Part shown: piece after piece, positions 332 to 34,420 of the stretch
Layout: the number at the start of each line of letters is the position of its first letter
How positions within the stretch are numbered: position 1 is the stretch's first letter
IMG/VR virus record: IMGVR_UViG_3300042429_000522
Coordinates: 1 to 62,434 of that record
Length of the DNA: 62,434 nt
From: a virus
Lineage: Duplodnaviria > Caudoviricetes
Direction: 5' to 3' (one strand)
Translations under genes and position numbers: made by a program
Notes under the pieces: generated by a model
Databases searched by the model: none
What the model was told of the DNA's origin: nothing
Seen by the model: only the letters and a program-made list of their open reading frames with translations

Positions 332-1474
332 TCATAGGTAGGTCGTTAGATCCGGTTGGTATCCCTCTAGGTCTCTAAGCGGTAATACCCGTGTGGTAGG
401 CCCCCAGTCAGCGTTAGGTACCACGGTTGCCATGTCACTGAGCGGTAGCCCTTCACTGTAAAGGTTGTAGCGGGCGGTGCCTAGTATCTGGTGGGCTTCA
501 ACCTGCGTAAGCCCATTTAGAATCTCTTCACCGGTTGCCACCTTTGGGCGGGTATCCGGGATGGAAGAATCGCCGGTAATCTCTGCCCATGAAAGCGTTT
601 CCGGTATCATCACGCATCTACAGTTAGGGTGGCTTGGCATGATGGTATCGGTGGCTTGCAAGGTGCCAGAGAGAGCCAAGCAGGCAAGGCACACCCGCGC
701 GTCTTGCGTAGCCTGCCGCCGGTATCCGGTCACTGCGCCATTCTCGGTGTATAGTTGCCGCTGTGCTTCCCGGCTTGCACGTATCATCTCGGTACGTGCT
801 ATTGTCTCTGCACGGCTTCTACCGATGTCAGCCGCCTTGCGTACCCGCCGTGCTACCGTGCGTGGGCCTTCACCTAACGAAATGCCTTGTACCAAAGCCA
901 TCTGCATAGCATCGGTGGTTACTTGTGGGATGGCATCGAATAGGACAGCCAAAGGCGAACCATCGCCTGCGAACCCGACAAAGGCCTGCAAGGCTTCGTC
1001 AGGTAGACTTGTCCATGAAGTACCAAGGGTAACGCCTGCGGGCTTGCGACCCGCTGCCGCTTCCACAAGGCGCGGCGTTGCCTCATTAGCAAGGATAGCG
1101 GCTTGTAGTTGCCCATCGGCTGTAATCACTGCCCCCTCTACCGAGAACTTTTTGAGGTTCTTTCCGAGCTGCTCAATGTTATCTATGATCCGCTGTCGCA
1201 TCCAAAGGATTGTCTCGGATGGCGGTTCCCCGTTAGCTTCACGCTCGGCTATCCGTCCCTCCAGCGCTTCAAGCTCATCGATGCTGGCCTTGGTTGCGGC
1301 TTTGTATGCGCGTTGCATACGGCTGATGGCTACACCTTCACGCTCTAGCAGGTCATTCCGGTACTTCTGGGATGCGGCATAGATTCTGCCCGTGCCGCTG
1401 TCTACTCGCTTGAGATTTCCTCCAGCGAATACCCGTAAAAAGGGTGCGACTTGTACACTACCCCCGGAGTGCAT
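332..1474 (-). CDS. MuF / SPP1 gp7-like head morphogenesis protein (possibly entered by -1 frameshift from portal)
   Basis: RAETIARTE, CxxC and HPNCRC motifs; follows portal. Confidence 0.85.
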   Translation of the reverse strand: MHSGGSVQVAPFLRVFAGGNLKRVDSGTGRIYAASQKYRNDLLEREGVAISRMQRAYKAATKASIDELEALEGRIAEREANGEPPSETILWMRQRIIDNIEQLGKNLKKFSVEGAVITADGQLQAAILANEATPRLVEAAAGRKPAGVTLGTSWTSLPDEALQAFVGFAGDGSPLAVLFDAIPQVTTDAMQMALVQGISLGEGPRTVARRVRKAADIGRSRAETIARTEMIRASREAQRQLYTENGAVTGYRRQATQDARVCLACLALSGTLQATDTIMPSHPNCRCVMIPETLSWAEITGDSSIPDTRPKVATGEEILNGLTQVEAHQILGTARYNLYSEGLPLSDMATVVPNADWGPTTRVLPLRDLEGYQPDLTTYL

Positions 1475-3255
1475 ACGTGGTCACCGTCAAGGCTCTTGCC
1501 GTCTGGCTGCATTGCGTCCCGCTTGGATGTAGACCAGCGGAACCCGGCATCACCGCCCCACAAGTCCCAGGCTACACGCCCCGGTGAAGGGAAACCTTCC
1601 TCGCCGCTGTTGAACCCTTCAGCCTTCTTGTCGACTTCATGCCGTGAAAAGAAAGAATACATCCGGAGGATGGTGTCTTCGGAAAGTTTCTCACCGTTGA
1701 CAATCTGGTTTGCTCGCGCAAGGCCTACCCGCGTCCCGCCATCGAATCCTTCTGCCTTCCAATCAAGCGCCCTTTGTGCTGCTTCAACCATGCCAGCGTT
1801 CGGTACAAACTTCATCTCGTACGCTTTGGCTTCATCCCGCAGGGTAACCGGTGCGGCTCCCGTGTGCTGTACTGGAAGGTTCAGGAAGTTGGTAACGCTA
1901 CCCGGGTCGTAGCCAGAGCGGATGAGGATACCTGCCGCGTTGGTTGTCTCTGCCAGCGATGCACCCGTGCCAGCCTGTACGCTGATGGCGGATGGATGCA
2001 GTACGCCGGTATCTTCCGGCACAGCTTCCAGCCCGGCTATGCGCTTGGCTTCAGCCCGATCAATGATGCCAGACTTGTACAGGCGCTCTGCCCGTGTGGC
2101 TTCCGCTTGCATATCATCGGCAAGCGCCCGCACGGTTTCAAGGTCGTACATTACATAATCACCCTGCTGTGTCTCAGGGTATTCCGGCAGCAGGTCAGCG
2201 GTGATGGCATCCGCCAAGGTACGGAGCAACGGCACCATGCCATCTTCCCATGCCGCCTGTTGCGCTCTCTCATAATTACTGTAGGTAGACCGCTCTAAGC
2301 CACTTCCAAGCCCTAAGACCATAGGGTTGATGCCAAGGGCTGAACAGATACGCTCCTCCGGTACACGCCTCACAGAATCCAAAGCAAGCTCGGAAGGAGT
2401 AAGGGATACCCTATCCATCTTGTACGCACCGGTCATAACCACGATACCGCCGCTACCGTCTCCGGTAAGGTCTTCATGCAGTTGCCGCTTGACCTGCCGA
2501 GCATCGTCCATGCTCATGTCTACCGATGTCTCTTTGGCATCAGGCCCGACAATCAATGACGGCATAGCCCCGTTAGCCAAGAGTCCATAAGCGGTAGTGC
2601 TTGCCGTGTTGTCGGTGGCAATCTCGCGCAGTACAGCGGTAAGCGGCGCACGGCCTATCCGGATATCGCTCGGGTCTCTGCCGTACCGGATGTGGATGAT
2701 GTCACTTACCGGGATGTCAAAGGAGCGCCCATCCGTGGTGTAGATGTAGTGGGTTAGCGGGTTTACGCCGTTACCTACCGGTCTGACCATGTCCTGCGGT
2801 AGAAACTGTAGAGCGGTCACCGTGCCACGGGTGGAAGAGCGAATCTTGCGGAGGTAGGTATTACCAAACAACTTATAGTCTTGGATGCACCAGCCCCAGA
2901 ATAAAGACCCCATTATCATCGGATCAGGTTGCGCCATGAGCTGAATAACCGGATGGTCTTCTACCGGCTCTGCCTGTTGAGAATCTATCGGTCGGTAGTA
3001 GCGTGGCGTGGCCTGTGGGTAGTTACGCACGTACCAGTCAATAGCACTAGCAACGACACCATTCAAGCCAAGGTCACCGGCAACTCTAGCCCAGTCCTTA
3101 GTACTTCCAGGGAGCGCCCGGCGCAGGAGTGTTTGCAGTTGACCAGAGCCGTAACCGGTTAGGTAGATGTCCCTAGACTGGCTAAGCGGCAATGGCAATG
3201 CCTGTGTCGGGTTGGCTGCGGCTTTACGGCCTAAGAAGCGGTCAAAGATACCCAT
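1402..3255 (-). CDS. Portal protein with C-terminal extension
   Basis: HK97-like portal motifs (LFGNTY, IIHIR, LG), downstream of terL; start MGIFDRF matches B. Confidence 0.9.
   Translation of the reverse strand: MGIFDRFLGRKAAANPTQALPLPLSQSRDIYLTGYGSGQLQTLLRRALPGSTKDWARVAGDLGLNGVVASAIDWYVRNYPQATPRYYRPIDSQQAEPVEDHPVIQLMAQPDPMIMGSLFWGWCIQDYKLFGNTYLRKIRSSTRGTVTALQFLPQDMVRPVGNGVNPLTHYIYTTDGRSFDIPVSDIIHIRYGRDPSDIRIGRAPLTAVLREIATDNTASTTAYGLLANGAMPSLIVGPDAKETSVDMSMDDARQVKRQLHEDLTGDGSGGIVVMTGAYKMDRVSLTPSELALDSVRRVPEERICSALGINPMVLGLGSGLERSTYSNYERAQQAAWEDGMVPLLRTLADAITADLLPEYPETQQGDYVMYDLETVRALADDMQAEATRAERLYKSGIIDRAEAKRIAGLEAVPEDTGVLHPSAISVQAGTGASLAETTNAAGILIRSGYDPGSVTNFLNLPVQHTGAAPVTLRDEAKAYEMKFVPNAGMVEAAQRALDWKAEGFDGGTRVGLARANQIVNGEKLSEDTILRMYSFFSRHEVDKKAEGFNSGEEGFPSPGRVAWDLWGGDAGFRWSTSKRDAMQPDGKSLDGDHVCTPGVVYKSHPFYGYSLEEISSE
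1438..1444 (-). other. Putative -1 slippery heptamer C-CCT-TTT (portal to MuF)
   Basis: X-XXY-YYZ in portal frame, conserved at 32612-32618; -1 frame is MuF. Confidence 0.6.
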
Positions 3256-3261
3256 GTCTTC

Positions 3262-3272
3262 AGTATCCCACA
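3262..3272 (-). promoter_or_regulatory. Late promoter motif TGTGGGATACT, 6 nt before the portal ATG
   Basis: Recurrent motif directly after a terminator. Confidence 0.7.
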
Positions 3273-3298
3273 AAAAGAAAAAGCCCCCTTGCGGGGGC
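3272..3298 (-). terminator. Rho-independent terminator
   Basis: GCCCCC-GCAA-GGGGGC followed by T-tract on minus strand. Confidence 0.8.
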
Positions 3299-3627: not shown

Positions 3628-4800
3628 TTAGACGGCTCCCCAAGAACGCTTTGATCCGCACACCTGCCAAGCATAGGCCAGGGCATCAACCACGTCATCA
3701 TGCCGCCCAACCGGGAAAGATAGCAACTCATCTTCAAAGTAAGCCGGGAGGCCTTGGCAGTGCATGACTTGGCTTTGCTCGTACCGGGCTTCGAGAGGCG
3801 CAAAGCGGGTCACTTTGTCACGGTCTGGCCGGATGCCCCGTATCGGCAACTTAGTACGCCGTAGGAGCTCCTGCACGACAGCGGCTTGGTATTGCACCTG
3901 CTCGATGCCGATCATGCTAGGATTCCACTTAGCCGCCATCATCTCGATGAACCGTAGCACGGAAGCAAAGTCCGCGCGGGTACGGTTGATGTCTCTAACG
4001 TAGATTGTCCCATCGTCACCACGGGAGACAACAGCAACCCCGGTGTAGTCGGCTTCACTCTTAGTGCTGATGGCAAGGTCAACCCCGATATAGGTGGGCA
4101 ACCCTTCAGGACAATCGCCATACCGCAACCACTCCCGCTTGATACGCGCTCCCGCCGCATCCACGAACTCCGCTAGATACTCCTGCCGGAAAGCAATCGA
4201 TGGCAAAGACTCACCCGCCTTGCCTACCTCCTCAGGATCTATCCAAGGGTTAGCCGTTGTAGGCATCTGCCAGCTCATCCAGTCAGCATCCGTAGCGGCC
4301 TGATTGTAGAGCGTCCTAAAATAGTTAGAGCCTTTAGGCGTACTGAGAAAGAACGCATCCCCCTTGTAATCGGTTAGCGTTGGGCGGATGGCTTCCGTCC
4401 AGGCTTGCTCTAAATGCCGTGCCATTGCCGCTTCGTCAATGATGACCCGCTTGTACTTTCTTCCACGGGCAACGGTGCTAGGATCATCCAAAGTCCAGTA
4501 GTCGATTGCTGCCCCGGTTATAAGCTCGATGCGCGGGGCTGGGCTTTGTACGGCTCGGCGGATAACCGGTGCATAGATACGCTTATGATCGGCGTATGCC
4601 TCTTCAAGCAAGCGGTAGGTAGGAGCGAACCACGCGCAGGGCAAGCCGTCAATCAATACTGGGTCAGATAAAAGGTTACCGCCTAGCGTTGTCTTACCAA
4701 AGCGTCTCCCGCAAGCAAGGACGTTGTACCGCTTGGCTTCCCGCAGGATGACCTGCTGGGCTTCATGCGGCCTTGGTAAGACTAATCGAATATCAGGCAA
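3628..4800 (-). CDS. terL: Terminase large subunit
   Basis: Walker A GRRFGKT, Walker B IIDEAA, nuclease GVD...HDDVVDA. Confidence 0.95.
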   Translation of the reverse strand: MPDIRLVLPRPHEAQQVILREAKRYNVLACGRRFGKTTLGGNLLSDPVLIDGLPCAWFAPTYRLLEEAYADHKRIYAPVIRRAVQSPAPRIELITGAAIDYWTLDDPSTVARGRKYKRVIIDEAAMARHLEQAWTEAIRPTLTDYKGDAFFLSTPKGSNYFRTLYNQAATDADWMSWQMPTTANPWIDPEEVGKAGESLPSIAFRQEYLAEFVDAAGARIKREWLRYGDCPEGLPTYIGVDLAISTKSEADYTGVAVVSRGDDGTIYVRDINRTRADFASVLRFIEMMAAKWNPSMIGIEQVQYQAAVVQELLRRTKLPIRGIRPDRDKVTRFAPLEARYEQSQVMHCQGLPAYFEDELLSFPVGRHDDVVDALAYAWQVCGSKRSWGAV

Positions 4801-5861
4801 GGCTGGTACGCTTTCTCAGCTGCAAGGATACGGGCTTTCGCTATCTCGATGTAGTCTGCATCCATCTCGCAACCGATGAACCGGAAGCCTTCAAGCACTG
4901 CACCCCGCCCGGTGCTACCTGATCCAGTGAATGGGTCAAGCACTACACCGCCGGTAGGTGTAACCATGCGGCACAAGTAGCGCATTAGGTCGGTAGGCTT
5001 TACGGTTGGGTGGTTGTTATCGCACCCATCGTTTCGGTCTTCACTACTTGATTTTGAACAATAGAAAAATCTAGAATCTTCACCTATTGTTCTAACAACG
5101 TCAGGGCTACCATCGTGCAACACGTTAGCAGGCCAACGGCCCGATGGTTTATATTCTGACAAATCTACTTGATGTTGAATTCCTTCAGATATGAATGTTC
5201 CACCCTTGTCATTTATGTTGGTTGAGACTGGCTTATCCCATGCCTTTTCAAATCCATCATCGCAAGGTATCCGGCAACCGTCTATGTTGATTGCGCCTGT
5301 ACCCCACTCCTGCACGTTCTGCGCTACCGTGGCTTTGAAGGGCTTCCGTGCCATCGTGATAGGCTCCATGGCTGGCTTTAGTGCTGTACCCCAGCCCTGC
5401 CATTGTTTAGCCGCATCCGTGGCAGGGGCTGGAGGCACATAACCTTTTGTAGGAATAGTCTTACTGATGTTTGCATTGTGACTTGACCCGGCTACAGTGA
5501 AGCCCTTGAATTCCGGTTTGAGAATCCCTGCCTCCCTGTCAAATCCTTTACTCACATTGTGAGACTTAGGGAACCCACTACCATACATCCACGCTAACAT
5601 ATCCCGAATCTCAAACCCGGCATCTTCAATGCGTACCGCCATCCGGTGTTGAGTCCTAGTACCGGCAAACGCCAGCAGGTAACCGCCTGGCTTTAGCACT
5701 CGCAAGCATTCTGCCCATATCTCGGTAGATGGAACGTCATAATCCCAACGCTTGCCCATGAAGGATAAGCCGTACGGCGGATCGGTTACAACAGCATCAA
5801 CCGAGCAATCCGGCATGGTTCGTAGGATGTCAAGACAGTTGCCGTGGTGAAGCTCATGCAC
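4782..5861 (-). CDS. DNA amino-methyltransferase (N6A/N4C, beta class)
   Basis: VTDPPY, HPTVKP and VLDPFTGSGSTG motifs; GTG start overlaps terS stop. Confidence 0.9.
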   Translation of the reverse strand: MHELHHGNCLDILRTMPDCSVDAVVTDPPYGLSFMGKRWDYDVPSTEIWAECLRVLKPGGYLLAFAGTRTQHRMAVRIEDAGFEIRDMLAWMYGSGFPKSHNVSKGFDREAGILKPEFKGFTVAGSSHNANISKTIPTKGYVPPAPATDAAKQWQGWGTALKPAMEPITMARKPFKATVAQNVQEWGTGAINIDGCRIPCDDGFEKAWDKPVSTNINDKGGTFISEGIQHQVDLSEYKPSGRWPANVLHDGSPDVVRTIGEDSRFFYCSKSSSEDRNDGCDNNHPTVKPTDLMRYLCRMVTPTGGVVLDPFTGSGSTGRGAVLEGFRFIGCEMDADYIEIAKARILAAEKAYQPCLIFD

Positions 5862-6225
5862 CGGGCTTATCCGCATACTCCACGATGACCTTGACCGGTG
5901 AACCGTCTGCGCCGGTCTGCTCTACTCTGCTAGACCAGTCGGCCTTGTGCTTGCGTTCAAGCCACCATGCGGCAGCTTGCCATGTCGTGCGGGTTGCATC
6001 TTGGATGACCTGAAGGTTGCGTAGCTCCGCTTCACCTTCTGCTTTTTCTACAGCGTATGAAAAATCTGAATATTCCTTGAGCCAGTTGGCAAGTGTAGTC
6101 TGATCAATACCAGCGGCAGCACAGGAAGCCCTGCGGGTGTTACCACCTCGCAGAGCGTCTGTGAGCTTGGCTACCGTTGCCGGTGTGTACTTGGTTGGTC
6201 TACCTGCTCCGGGTTGTGCTGCCAT
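5854..6225 (-). CDS. terS: Terminase small subunit
   Basis: GRPTKY...HTH...WQAAAWWLER; homolog directly precedes terL in B. Confidence 0.8.
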   Translation of the reverse strand: MAAQPGAGRPTKYTPATVAKLTDALRGGNTRRASCAAAGIDQTTLANWLKEYSDFSYAVEKAEGEAELRNLQVIQDATRTTWQAAAWWLERKHKADWSSRVEQTGADGSPVKVIVEYADKPGA

Positions 6226-31505: not shown

Positions 31506-32651
31506 TTATTCGAATGTCGTTAGATCTGGTTCGTAACCCTCTAGGTCTCTAAGCGGTAGCACCCGTGTAGTAGGACCCCAGTCGGCATTCTGAACCACGG
31601 TTGCCATGTCACTGAGAGGCAACCCTTCTGCGTAAAGGGCGTACCGTGATTTGCCTAGGATTTGTTGAGCCTCCATAGCGGTTAGCCCACGCAAGATATC
31701 TTCACCGGTAACCGGCTTAGGTCGTGTATCAGGGATGCTACTATCCCCGGTTATCTCTGCCCAGCTCAAGGTTACCGGAATCATCACGCACCGACAGTTC
31801 GGATGGCTTGGCATAATCTCATCGGTGGTTGATAGCGTACCAGACAAAGCCAAACACGCAAGGCAAACCCTGCTGTCCTGCGTTGCTTGGCGTCGGTACC
31901 CTGTCACCGCTGGGTTCTGCGTGTAAAGTTGCCGTTGTGCTTCACGGGCACTTCGGATCATCTCAGTACGTGCTATCGTCTCTGCTCGGTAGCGTCCAAT
32001 GTCTGCAGCTTTGCGTACCCGACGTGCTACGGTTCGTGGACCTTCACCAAGGGAAATACCCTGTACAAGTGCCATCTGCATGGCATCCGTGGTTACCTGC
32101 GGTATGGTCGCAAATAACTCACCCAAAGGGCTTCCATCACCCGCCATGCCGACAAAGGCTTGGAGCTGTTCGTCTGGTAGGTTTGTCCATGAACTTCCGA
32201 GGCTAACACCCGCCGGTTTACGACCTGCCGCCGCTTCAACCATGCCGACGCTCGCCTCATTCGCAAGGACTGCTGATTCAAGTTGTCCATCAGCCGTTAT
32301 CGTAGCCCCCTCGATGCTAAACTTTTTGAGATTCCTACCTAACTCTTCAATGTTATCGATGATGCGTTGACGCATCCAGAGTATGGTGTCGGACGGGTGT
32401 TCACCGTTATCTAGCCGTTCTTGGATACGACCCTCTAGTGCTTCCAGTTCATCGATGCTTGCCTTTGTGGCTGCCCTGTATGCCCGTTGCATCCGGCTGA
32501 TGGCTACACCTTCACGTTCCAAAAGTTCATTACGAAACTTTTGACTGGCTGCATAGAGTCGAGCACTGTCGTTGTTTACTCTTTTGAGATGCTTTCCATC
32601 TCGTACCCGTAAAAAGGGTGAGACTTGTACACTACCCCCGGAGTGCAGCAA
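31506..32651 (-). CDS. MuF / gp7-like head morphogenesis protein (B)
   Basis: Close homolog of 332-1474; no conserved start codon. Confidence 0.85.
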   Translation of the reverse strand: MLHSGGSVQVSPFLRVRDGKHLKRVNNDSARLYAASQKFRNELLEREGVAISRMQRAYRAATKASIDELEALEGRIQERLDNGEHPSDTILWMRQRIIDNIEELGRNLKKFSIEGATITADGQLESAVLANEASVGMVEAAAGRKPAGVSLGSSWTNLPDEQLQAFVGMAGDGSPLGELFATIPQVTTDAMQMALVQGISLGEGPRTVARRVRKAADIGRYRAETIARTEMIRSAREAQRQLYTQNPAVTGYRRQATQDSRVCLACLALSGTLSTTDEIMPSHPNCRCVMIPVTLSWAEITGDSSIPDTRPKPVTGEDILRGLTAMEAQQILGKSRYALYAEGLPLSDMATVVQNADWGPTTRVLPLRDLEGYEPDLTTFE

Positions 32652-34420
32652 TCAACGCTCTTGCCGTCAGGTTGCATAGCGTTACGTTTGGATGTTGACC
32701 ACCGGAAACCTGCATCGCCGCCCCATAAGTCCCAAGCAACACGCCCCGGACTAGGGAAACCGTCTTCGCCACTGTTGAAGCCTTCAGCCTTCTTGTCTAC
32801 CTCATGTCGGCTAAAGAAACTGTACATCCTAAGTATCGTGTCATCGGATAGATTCTCACGGTTGACAATCTGGTTAGCCCTTGCCAAACCTATTCGCGTG
32901 CCACCGCTGAACCCTTCAGCCTTCCAATCAAGCGCACGCTGTGCAGCTGAAACCATGCCGTCGTTTGGTACAGCCTTGACATCGTAGCTCTTGGCTTCAT
33001 CACGCAAGGTAACCGGTGCGGCTCCTGTGTGCTGTACTGGGAGGTTGAGGAAGTTAGTAACACTGCCCGGATCGTAACCGGAACGAATCAAGATACCTGC
33101 CGCGTTGGTTGTCTCTGCTAGGGATGCACCGGTGCCAGCCTGAACACTGATTGCGGATGGATGCAATACCCCGGTATCTTCCGGCACTGCTTCAAGACCG
33201 GCTATGCGCTTGGCTTCAGCACGATCAATAATGCCAGCCTTGTACAACCGCTCTGCACGTTCCGCTTCAGCAGCAAGGTCATCAGCCAATGCACGTACGG
33301 TTTCAAGGTCGTACTGTATGAAGTCACCCTCTTGTGTTTCTGGGTACTCCGGCAGGAGGTCAGCAGTGATTGCATCGGCAAGGGTGCGGAGCAGAGGAAC
33401 CATGCCATCTTCCCACGCCGCTTGTTGAGCGCGCTCGTAATTACTGTAGGTAGACCTTTCAAGACCTGAGCCAAGACCTAGCACCATCGGGTTGATACCA
33501 AGGGCTGAACAGATACGCTCCTCTGGTACACGCCTAACCGAATCCAAAGCAAGCTCGGACGGTGTAAGGCTAACACGATCAAGTTTATACGCACCGGTCA
33601 TCACCACGATGCCACCTGAACCGTCCCCGGTAAGGTCTTCATGTAGTTGGCGCTTGACCTGCCGGGCATCATCGATGCTAATGTCTACGGTCTGGTCTTT
33701 GGCATCAGGACCAACGATAAGCGATGGCATAGCGCCGTTAGCAAGCAAACCATAAGCAGTTGTACTGGCTGTATTGTCGGTAGCAATCTCACGCAGTACA
33801 GCCATAACAGGAGACCTACCCAAGCGGATATCTTGCGGGTCCCGGTTGTACCTTATGTGGATGATGTCAGAAACGGGGATGTCAAAGGAGCGACCATCAG
33901 TGGTGTAAACGTAATGGGTTAGCGGGTTTACACCGTTACCGACAGGTCTAACCATGTCCTGCGGAAGGAACTGTAAAGCAGTCACCACGCCACGGGTTGT
34001 AGATCTAATCTTGCGTAGGTAGGTGTTGCCAAACAATTTATAATCTTGTATGACCCAGCCCCAAAATAAGCTGCCCATAATCATTGGATCAGGTTGAGCC
34101 ATGAGCTGTAGCACCGGGTGGTCTTCTACCGGCTCTGCCTGTTGGCTGTCTACCGGTCGGTAGTACTTTGGTGTGGCTTGGGGATAGTTCCGGACATACC
34201 AATCAATGGCAGATGCCACGATGCCGTTCAAGCCAAGGTCACCGGCTATGCGGGACCAGTCTTTGGTTGATCCGGGCAATGCACGGCGCAGCAAGTTCTG
34301 CAGCTGACCTGAGCCGTACCCAGTAAGGTAAATGTCCCGTGACTGGCTGAGTGGCAACGGCAATGCTTGTGTCGGGTTGGCTACGGCTTTACGTCCTAGG
34401 AAGCGGTCAAATATACCCAT
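32576..34420 (-). CDS. Portal protein (B)
   Basis: Close homolog of 1402-3255. Confidence 0.9.
   Translation of the reverse strand: MGIFDRFLGRKAVANPTQALPLPLSQSRDIYLTGYGSGQLQNLLRRALPGSTKDWSRIAGDLGLNGIVASAIDWYVRNYPQATPKYYRPVDSQQAEPVEDHPVLQLMAQPDPMIMGSLFWGWVIQDYKLFGNTYLRKIRSTTRGVVTALQFLPQDMVRPVGNGVNPLTHYVYTTDGRSFDIPVSDIIHIRYNRDPQDIRLGRSPVMAVLREIATDNTASTTAYGLLANGAMPSLIVGPDAKDQTVDISIDDARQVKRQLHEDLTGDGSGGIVVMTGAYKLDRVSLTPSELALDSVRRVPEERICSALGINPMVLGLGSGLERSTYSNYERAQQAAWEDGMVPLLRTLADAITADLLPEYPETQEGDFIQYDLETVRALADDLAAEAERAERLYKAGIIDRAEAKRIAGLEAVPEDTGVLHPSAISVQAGTGASLAETTNAAGILIRSGYDPGSVTNFLNLPVQHTGAAPVTLRDEAKSYDVKAVPNDGMVSAAQRALDWKAEGFSGGTRIGLARANQIVNRENLSDDTILRMYSFFSRHEVDKKAEGFNSGEDGFPSPGRVAWDLWGGDAGFRWSTSKRNAMQPDGKSVDCCTPGVVYKSHPFYGYEMESISKE

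Follow-up and report, generated by a model that had tools for sequence, protein, structure and literature searches.

A Predicted -1 Ribosomal Frameshift at a Conserved Slippery Heptamer between the Portal and MuF Genes of a Lake-Water Phage Group

The Portal and MuF Genes Overlap at a Slippery Heptamer

The portal gene and the gene for the MuF minor head protein in IMG/VR virus record IMGVR_UViG_3300042429_000522 overlap at a slippery heptamer, C CCU UUU, and it is very likely that MuF is made by programmed -1 ribosomal frameshifting at this site, giving a portal-MuF fusion beside the plain portal protein. This reading was put forward in an initial annotation of the sequence and was strongly supported by relatives. 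An alignment of the junction across relatives, suggested there as a check, retained the heptamer together with the -1 frame in 172 of 180 distinct junctions and revealed a codon-position signal that switches frame, and 80 of the 172 have no start codon for MuF. The sequence analyzed (the window) comprised the whole of this IMG/VR virus record, 62,434 nt in length. It consists, over positions 1-62434, of two related phage genomes of ~31.2 kb, copies A and B, placed head to tail.

Portal A occupies positions 1402-3273 of the minus strand. Its open reading frame (ORF) opens at TTG 3273 and stops with TAG 1404-1402; the match to the MGIFDRF start of copy B makes ATG 3255 the likely start. The MuF A ORF (P0002; 332-1474, minus strand) overlaps portal A by 73 nt. 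Portal B (32576-34420, minus strand) shows 91% identity to portal A over the best tblastn segment and is overlapped by 76 nt by the MuF B ORF (31506-32651, minus strand), which is 83% identical to MuF A. An overlap of ~70 nt around C CCT TTT with MuF in the -1 frame had been described before, and its coordinates were right.

The heptamer is located at 1444-1438 in copy A and at 32618-32612 in copy B (both minus strand) and reads X XXY YYZ in the portal frame. The portal A gene ends with GTG TAC AAG TCG CAC CCT TTT TAC GGG TAT TCG CTG GAG GAA ATC TCA AGC GAG TAG. In both copies the MuF codons begin one base upstream of the portal codons, which is the -1 frame. A slip by -1 gives CCC in the P site and TTT in the A site, which would allow re-pairing of both tRNAs. 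From the heptamer onward, the coding region in the MuF frame spans 332-1444 in copy A (~370 codons with the Phage_Mu_F domain) and 31506-32618 in copy B, where the annotated ORF reaches up to TTG 32651 (both minus strand).

We propose that some ribosomes on the portal mRNA slip back by one base at C CCU UUU, 12 codons before the portal stop, with the P-site tRNA-Pro re-pairing from CCU to CCC and the A-site tRNA-Phe from UUU to UUU. The slipped ribosomes would go on in the MuF frame and produce a fusion of ~975-980 aa (~107 kDa) with the junction VVYKSHPF/LRV, in agreement with the junction peptide SHPFLR expected earlier for the -1 product, while ribosomes that do not slip would yield plain portal. 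The slip itself and its frequency are inferred. Fusion and plain portal may then co-assemble in the dodecamer, which would bring MuF domains into the head at the portal vertex in limited number. As suggested in the initial annotation, perhaps only a minority of portal subunits would carry MuF, and this might determine its copy number. In such a particle, a covalent fusion would replace the non-covalent binding between portal and MuF known from SPP1 gp6/gp7.

The Heptamer and the -1 Frame Are Kept among Relatives

We scanned viral contigs with two MuF proteins, which gave 370 and 369 relatives, and used the best 80 of each. The first 88 sequences comprised 86 loci together with copies A and B; 80 of them carried the junction, two were cut short, and six were distant genome matches. 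Later, more distant MuF proteins served as further queries, and metagenome contigs were scanned with a profile. The scan of genome contigs found only the six distant loci, none with the junction anchor, and scans with P0131 and P0133 as queries gave no loci. From the first set, 10 of 238 loci were left out for want of a portal match, and from the second set of 85, 18 had no portal match and 2 no MuF match. The final set held 293 loci with both genes, corresponding to 180 distinct junctions of 250 nt.

Among the 180 distinct junctions, MuF was in the -1 frame with an in-frame C CCT TT(T/C) in 172, in the -1 frame without the heptamer (TAATG overlap) in three, in the same frame as portal (fused) in three, and in the +1 frame in two; the sequences share kinship, so the counts out of 180 and out of 172 are not independent events. 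For the first-set loci with both genes, MuF was in the -1 frame in 227/228. The heptamer with its preceding codon read CAC CCT TTT in 163 of the 172 junctions and CAC CCT TTC in 6, and TCC, AAC, and ATC CCT TTT occurred once each. In the first 80 loci, the heptamer was present in 80/80, and the portal stop followed 40 nt past it, again in 80/80. In-frame XXXYYYZ strings are not rare (four in the 624 codons of portal A and three in portal B, compared to ~2.8 and ~2.6 in codon shuffles), and the case therefore rests on the relatives. It is the conservation across them that exceeds chance.

The run of five T at the heptamer could also suggest that the frame changes at the RNA level, with the polymerase slipping on T5, or that one fused ORF was split by a sequencing error in the homopolymer. 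We consider this extremely improbable. The two-frame arrangement recurs in 172/172 distinct junctions from many assemblies, the same T5 run is present in all contigs compared, and five T is far below the run lengths known to support transcriptional slippage. Furthermore, the heptamer is spanned without insertions or deletions by contigs from two RNA libraries as well as from two DNA runs, with the proviso that run contigs drop rare variants and an RNA library may contain DNA.

Many Relatives Have No Start Codon for MuF

In copy A, the annotated MuF ORF opens with an ATG (1472-1474, minus strand) directly after a MuF-frame stop; in copy B it opens with TTG at 32651, directly after TGA. The initial annotation had pointed out this difference (ATG at 1474, TTG at 32651) and stated that MuF lacks a conserved start. 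The relatives confirmed this, as 80/172 have no canonical start at all: no ATG, GTG, or TTG is present from the nearest upstream MuF-frame stop to the heptamer, nor at +3..+56 (18 codons; offsets are relative to the heptamer). In 78/172 junctions, a MuF start exists only upstream of the heptamer, and 60/172 have a MuF-frame stop three codons before it (-9..-7).

The starts are lost through changes that are silent for the portal protein. In 55 of the first 80 loci, GTG TAT AAG replaces GTG TAC AAG, which keeps Tyr in the portal and creates a MuF-frame TAA three codons before the heptamer. Three more of the 80 lose the ATG by the portal-silent change of CAC GTA to CAT GTC, and 22 keep a start. 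The second set added variants with CTG instead of ATG, due to the portal-synonymous change of GTA to GTC. In the start-less relatives, the downstream ORF does not depend on an initiation codon of its own, and the ATG and TTG of copies A and B are not conserved. We judged ATG 1474 of copy A to be a fortuitous start.

If portal and MuF were ordinary overlapping genes, MuF would initiate at ATG 1474 in copy A and at TTG 32651 in copy B, perhaps coupled to portal translation, and the heptamer would be kept for the portal residues His-Pro-Phe. Such an arrangement would fit the start codon that directly follows the MuF-frame stop in both copies, the GGTGA 6 nt before the ATG in copy A, and the separate MuF genes of the P0137 and L295 lineages described below. 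However, portal-synonymous changes remove or cut off the start in 80/172 relatives while MuF is still under purifying selection, and GGTGA is lost in variants with GAC ACC GAC. The residues before Pro-Phe vary freely in the MuF frame (VQVA or V*EP), whereas they are constant Ser-His in the portal frame. Codon bias would disfavor CCT, which is nevertheless retained, and the preceding base stays C despite amino-acid changes. We therefore regard independent initiation in overlapping genes as quite unlikely.

Other possible routes to a separate MuF start were dropped. Reinitiation after the portal stop was discarded because no start-like codon is present near the portal stop in the MuF frame. The GGAGG at +21..+25 was discarded as a ribosome-binding site because no start codon follows it and copy B does not have it. 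A start at the +12 codon was discarded because the close clade reads GTA, ATA, TTA, or CTA there.

Sequence Variation Switches Frame at the Heptamer

Variable columns were counted in 79 gap-free aligned sequences; seven of them were excluded, on account of indels, from the two segments that lie upstream of -30. At -300..-31, 80/90 columns were variable at portal position 3 (MuF position 1), compared to 25/90 at portal position 1 (MuF position 2) and 10/90 at portal position 2 (MuF position 3). At +43..+125, which is past the portal stop and ahead of the first downstream ATG (+126), the corresponding numbers were 7/27, 7/28, and 24/28. Because variation is concentrated at MuF third positions before ATG +126, translation in the MuF frame must start upstream of the portal stop.

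The point of entry could be narrowed further. The Ser codon just before the heptamer varies between TCG, TCT, TCC, and AGC, all Ser in the portal frame, and gives Val-Ala or Glu-Pro in the MuF frame. The changes at +32, +35, and +36, directly ahead of the portal stop, substitute portal residues and leave those of MuF as they are. Silent changes thus switch frame between the Ser codon and these positions, which sets the entry into the MuF frame between -6 and ~+30, and the heptamer is the sole slippery site in this interval. A switch of frame at the heptamer had been read initially from the substitutions between copies A and B, where TCG/TCT is silent in the portal frame (both Ser) and AAG CGA/AAA AGA is silent in the MuF frame (Lys-Arg) but not in the portal frame (Ser to Lys). 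Both pairs were as described, and the switch was borne out by the third-position variation in the 79 aligned sequences.

The first canonical MuF-frame start downstream of the heptamer is an ATG at 1316-1318 (minus strand), Met55 of P0002, which is found at +126 in most loci. Several called proteins (P0125, P0129, P0135, P0163, P0267) begin at this Met55, as would be seen if MuF started at this ATG (1318-1316) and the stretch from the portal stop to it were untranslated. We give this explanation very little credence. The variation at +43..+125 falls mainly on MuF third positions (24/28 versus 7/27 and 7/28), and the stretch encodes the motif IYAAxxxYRxxLxxRE, which is common to stand-alone and fused homologs. 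The motif is encoded right after the portal stop; in stand-alone MuF proteins it lies 10-20 residues from the N-terminus and in fused portal-MuF proteins directly after the portal part. Annotation from Met55 in start-less relatives (P0125, P0129, P0135, and others) consequently cuts the motif off.

The heptamer and its surroundings were also constrained at the nucleotide level. Portal third positions were variable in only 2/13 cases at -27..+11, compared to 80/90 at -300..-31 (Fisher p = 1.1e-7). In a GC-rich sister clade, with MuF ~50% and portal ~65% identical to the copies in the record, CCT makes up 6.6% of the portal Pro codons, yet it is found at the heptamer in 16/16 sequences. TTT makes up 17.9% of the portal Phe codons in this clade, yet it is found at the heptamer in 11/16; the other five have TTC, which is still X XXY YYZ. 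More distant sequences read TCC CCT TTT TCC (L242, MuF identity 50%), AAC CCT TTT TCC (L271, 48%), and ATC CCT TTT CGC (L317, 38%). The base before CCT is always C, in codons for His, Ser, Asn, and Ile alike, and this constancy is what re-pairing to CCC requires. In the lineage of L156 and L286, the portal stop follows 22 nt past the heptamer, TAA is present at -9, a start codon is lacking, and the hairpin that comes next is a different, GC-rich one.

Hairpins on Both Sides of the Heptamer

A 5' hairpin was found at 1454-1473 (offsets -29..-10, minus strand) in copy A, with the stem TGCACT/AGTGTA enclosing an 8-nt loop, CCGGGGGT, and ending 9 nt before the heptamer. The hairpin of copy B (32628-32647, minus strand) is identical in sequence. 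In copy A, the loop carries a Shine-Dalgarno-like GGGGGT at 1465-1460. The GGGGG run that the initial annotation had placed 16 nt upstream of the heptamer is indeed present, and it lies in the loop of this conserved 5' hairpin. The GC-rich clade has ACGGC / TCCGAGGT / GCCGT at the same positions, and L156 has TGCGCG / CCGGGGGT / CGTGTA. Within the close clade, a T:A pair of the stem is changed to C:G in 9 sequences, with no half-changed intermediates. Over 45 distinct sequences, 94.8% of the cells were paired, compared to at most 61.5% in slid controls, and changes on both sides were seen at 3/6 pairs. RNAalifold predicted the stem independently, and the synonymous sites of the portal gene do not vary along the hairpin. 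The loop sequence G(G/A)GGT at -20..-16, within the hairpin loop and 15 nt from the heptamer, was retained in 45/45 distinct sequences. Comparable hairpins are present in L242, L271, and L317, although that of L317 has a different sequence and a GGGAGG loop and lies 2-3 nt nearer to the heptamer.

On the 3' side, copy A has a hairpin at 1403-1431 (minus strand) with an 11-bp stem and one mismatch, 6 nt after the heptamer (-14.5 kcal/mol, z -4.63, 0/200 shuffles as good). The hairpin of copy B at 32586-32602 (minus strand; GAGATG / GAAAG / CATCTC) follows 9 nt after the heptamer (-8.7 kcal/mol, z -3.92, 0/200 shuffles as good). A 3' hairpin was found in most close relatives, in two registers. 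One pair varies between C:G (47) and A:U (9), as between the GAGCTGG/CCAGCTC type and copy B; family-wide, 73% of the cells were paired, with this one compensatory pair. An Rfam search of 1300-1600 found no family match.

Both hairpins, the one on the 5' side together with its Shine-Dalgarno-like loop, may tune the slip. A more far-reaching interpretation, which we put forward tentatively and consider rather doubtful as a whole, is that the 5' hairpin with its Shine-Dalgarno-like loop, C CCU UUY, and a replaceable 3' hairpin form an ancient, self-contained cassette that sets the ratio of portal to portal-MuF, and hence the number of MuF domains per head. The 5' hairpin might then represent a new type of upstream frameshift modulator, its stem being exchanged through compensatory substitutions in lineages as distant as 38% MuF identity and its location and loop being preserved, and the junction might be a middle state between split and fused genes.

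Separate, Frameshift-Linked, and Fused Forms in the Wider Family

Portal A belongs to the HK97-family portals (PF04860; E 6.2e-52, 177.2 bits versus a cut-off of 39.1, residues 74-412). Portals in the PDB, for example 6tba, match residues 95-415 (E 2.5e-13), and the core (residues 95-428) resembles solved HK97-family portals. Past this HK97-type core, portal A has a C-terminal extension of ~195 aa (residues 430-623; 1405-1986, minus strand), and the proposed frameshift site sits at the very end of it. A Pfam search of residues 430-623 gave no match; the same residues match phrog_2859, a family with no known function. The extension contains the conserved stretch PGRVAWDLWGGDAG, and the portal of the P0137 lineage has PGRVAWDLWGGDAG as well. 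MuF A belongs to PF04233 (Phage_Mu_F, the family of the Mu F and SPP1 gp7 minor head proteins; E 2.1e-14, 54.7 bits versus a cut-off of 29.6, residues 192-292 of P0002). A PDB sequence search with MuF gave no match.

Outside the group, the closest MuF homologs show 35-45% identity, and many of them are proteins of ~790-920 aa with MuF at the C-terminus. PF04860 and PF04233 were both present in a single ORF in 7/7 full-length homologs with a C-terminal MuF match that were tested, P0136 and P0140 among them; an eighth was a fragment. L311 and L312 are fused portal-MuF genes, and the phrog_2662 profile covers both the portal and the MuF half. Fused portal/MuF genes are also described for Microbacterium phages of the subclusters EA3, EA5, and EA8 and of cluster EB in parts of PMC7302621. 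These single-ORF homologs indicate that a portal-MuF fusion is viable. The A/B pair is not of this type, since the domains are in different frames and the portal stop follows 12 codons past the heptamer. A search with the portal protein returned at least 120 close relatives among the matches listed, all of them portal-only (348-618 aa) and none fused, and was uninformative at that depth.

In the P0137 lineage (L237-L239 and L316; three distinct junctions), the related portal ends with TAATG, and a separate MuF with its own ATG begins MYYGKPYLRV. The sequence P(F/Y)LRV can therefore be assigned to MuF. Relatives that lose the heptamer and keep a MuF start of their own had been named initially as evidence that would speak against frameshifting. 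Such a case exists, but only in this separate lineage (three distinct junctions, four loci) and not among the close relatives. A separate ATG for MuF is also present in L295. In L306 (~1100-1300; MuF 42% identical), the N-terminal motif of MuF lies in the +1 frame relative to portal, with no upstream ATG, GTG, or TTG, and the portal ends GGT GGG TAG GTT TCG AAG GTA A; either +1 frameshifting or initiation at a non-canonical codon might account for this arrangement.

Separate, frameshift-linked, and fused forms of portal and MuF thus coexist among relatives, which fits two proteins that cooperate at the portal vertex. For SPP1, the parts of PMC6316719 that concern gp7 describe that a small number of its copies reach the procapsid through their binding to gp6, the portal protein.

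Some MuF proteins carry additional sequences. In some close relatives (P0125; L054, L056, L063, L069, L073, L074), MuF is interrupted by an intein (PF14890) within the motif HPNC/RCVM, and the intein-bearing MuF-frame ORFs comprise 686-780 codons. P0129 and P0137 are MuF homologs with a C-terminal extension of ~330 aa, in which an HExxH-like motif (HEFTH or HEYGH) was read by eye. This extension may be a cargo domain like the MuF-fused toxins of the literature.

Observations Weighing against Frameshifting

Besides the kinship among the sequences, several observations weigh against a programmed frameshift or limit the evidence for one. A single heptamer inside the overlap is unremarkable by chance alone, and the A/B pair (~80% nt identity) has little power. 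Both copies own a possible start (ATG 1474; TTG 32651), and an upstream start is also present in 78/172 relatives. MuF of copies A and B may be initiated independently, or the ATG and TTG could contribute in addition. A GTG or ATG in the MuF frame within +3..+56, a possible start, occurs in 14/172; in the GC-rich clade it is at +12. The P0137 lineage shows that MuF is able to work as a separate protein; this lineage leaves the many start-less close relatives unexplained.

The RNA elements are not uniformly convincing. By energy, the 5' hairpin of the record is unremarkable (-6.5 kcal/mol, z -0.83), and its Shine-Dalgarno-like element is 15 nt away from the heptamer, beyond the optimum of 10-14 nt for stimulation of the dnaX type. 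No 3' hairpin is present in L105-type sequences (2/61 distinct downstream segments, seven junctions; -5.0 and -3.7 kcal/mol), the 3' fold of the GC-rich clade is no better than the local background, and the 61 distinct 3' segments gave a mean z of -0.95 and a median rank of 0.14.

Comparison with Known Systems and Significance

In the tail assembly chaperones of tailed phages (gpG and gpGT in lambda), a -1 frameshift reportedly gives a short protein and, at a constant proportion to it, a fusion extended at the C-terminus. As proposed, the portal/MuF junction would resemble the tail chaperones in the -1 slip on X XXY YYZ near the end of the upstream ORF, in a short and an extended product, in positional conservation across divergent phages, and in a downstream ORF without its own start. 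In contrast to them, portal and MuF belong to the head module, both products would presumably be virion components, and one heptamer sequence is kept across lineages together with a covarying 5' hairpin.

The -1 frameshift in dnaX of E. coli depends on an upstream Shine-Dalgarno sequence, the heptamer A AAA AAG, and a downstream stem-loop. The layout of the portal/MuF junction in copies A and B is similar, with a Shine-Dalgarno-like element, a heptamer, and a predicted stem-loop 6-9 nt downstream. Here, however, the Shine-Dalgarno-like bases are in a hairpin loop, 15 nt away from a heptamer that reads C CCU UUU, and the shift would add ~370 aa, whereas the shift in dnaX truncates the product.

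The proposed product shares the order of domains, portal and then MuF in one polypeptide, with the single-ORF fusions (phrog_2662, P0136, P0140, and those in parts of PMC7302621). Unlike in those fusions, where MuF is on every portal subunit and no recoding is needed, two frames are used here and plain portal would also be made. As in SPP1, where the relevant parts of PMC6316719 describe separate gp6 and gp7 that bind each other, MuF would be brought into the procapsid via the portal and in few copies; unlike in SPP1, portal and MuF would be linked covalently, and the ribosome would establish the link.

Among phage structural genes, tail chaperones and a few capsid genes are textbook examples of programmed frameshifting; the portal is not. 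The initial annotation knew of no portal-MuF frameshift either, and our literature search, in which supplementary genome maps (e.g., of PMC7302621) were not covered, found no report of one. The predicted programmed frameshifts mentioned in parts of PMC7302621, PMC7911831, PMC3483164, PMC10299305, PMC5506516, and PMC6316719 concern tail genes, except for a hydrolase region in PMC10299305. While -1 frameshifting on X XXY YYZ itself is already known, recoding in the portal-MuF gene pair would be new.

If correct, the portal-MuF frameshift would mean that hundreds of public contigs from this abundant group of lake-water phages carry a wrong annotation of MuF, either truncated to Met55 or assigned a fortuitous start. 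It would be a translational answer to the loading of a few internal head proteins, in fixed number, at the unique portal vertex. The separate, frameshift-linked, and fused genes would form a natural series for studying the interchange of covalent and non-covalent links, and the junction would provide a compact 5' element, supported by covariation, for studies on frameshifting.

Further Features of the Record

Positions 27-29266 align with 31201-62432 as collinear blocks with 69-85% nt identity between copies A and B. The double record could represent a tandem pair, a concatemer of two strains, or a chimeric assembly. A nucleotide search of a collection of named phages gave a single irrelevant match of 119 nt. 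At least half of the sampled words of 1100-1800 were present in lake-water metagenome runs of 18 studies, and the same region was partly present in freshwater metatranscriptome assemblies; the phage group therefore appears to be widespread in lakes.

The head module lies on the minus strand in both copies, in the order large terminase, small ORF, portal, MuF, an ORF with weak similarity to proteases, and major head protein. A DNA methyltransferase gene (4782-5876, minus strand; phrog_67, E 1.2e-76) is located directly upstream of the large terminase gene and overlaps it by 19 nt.

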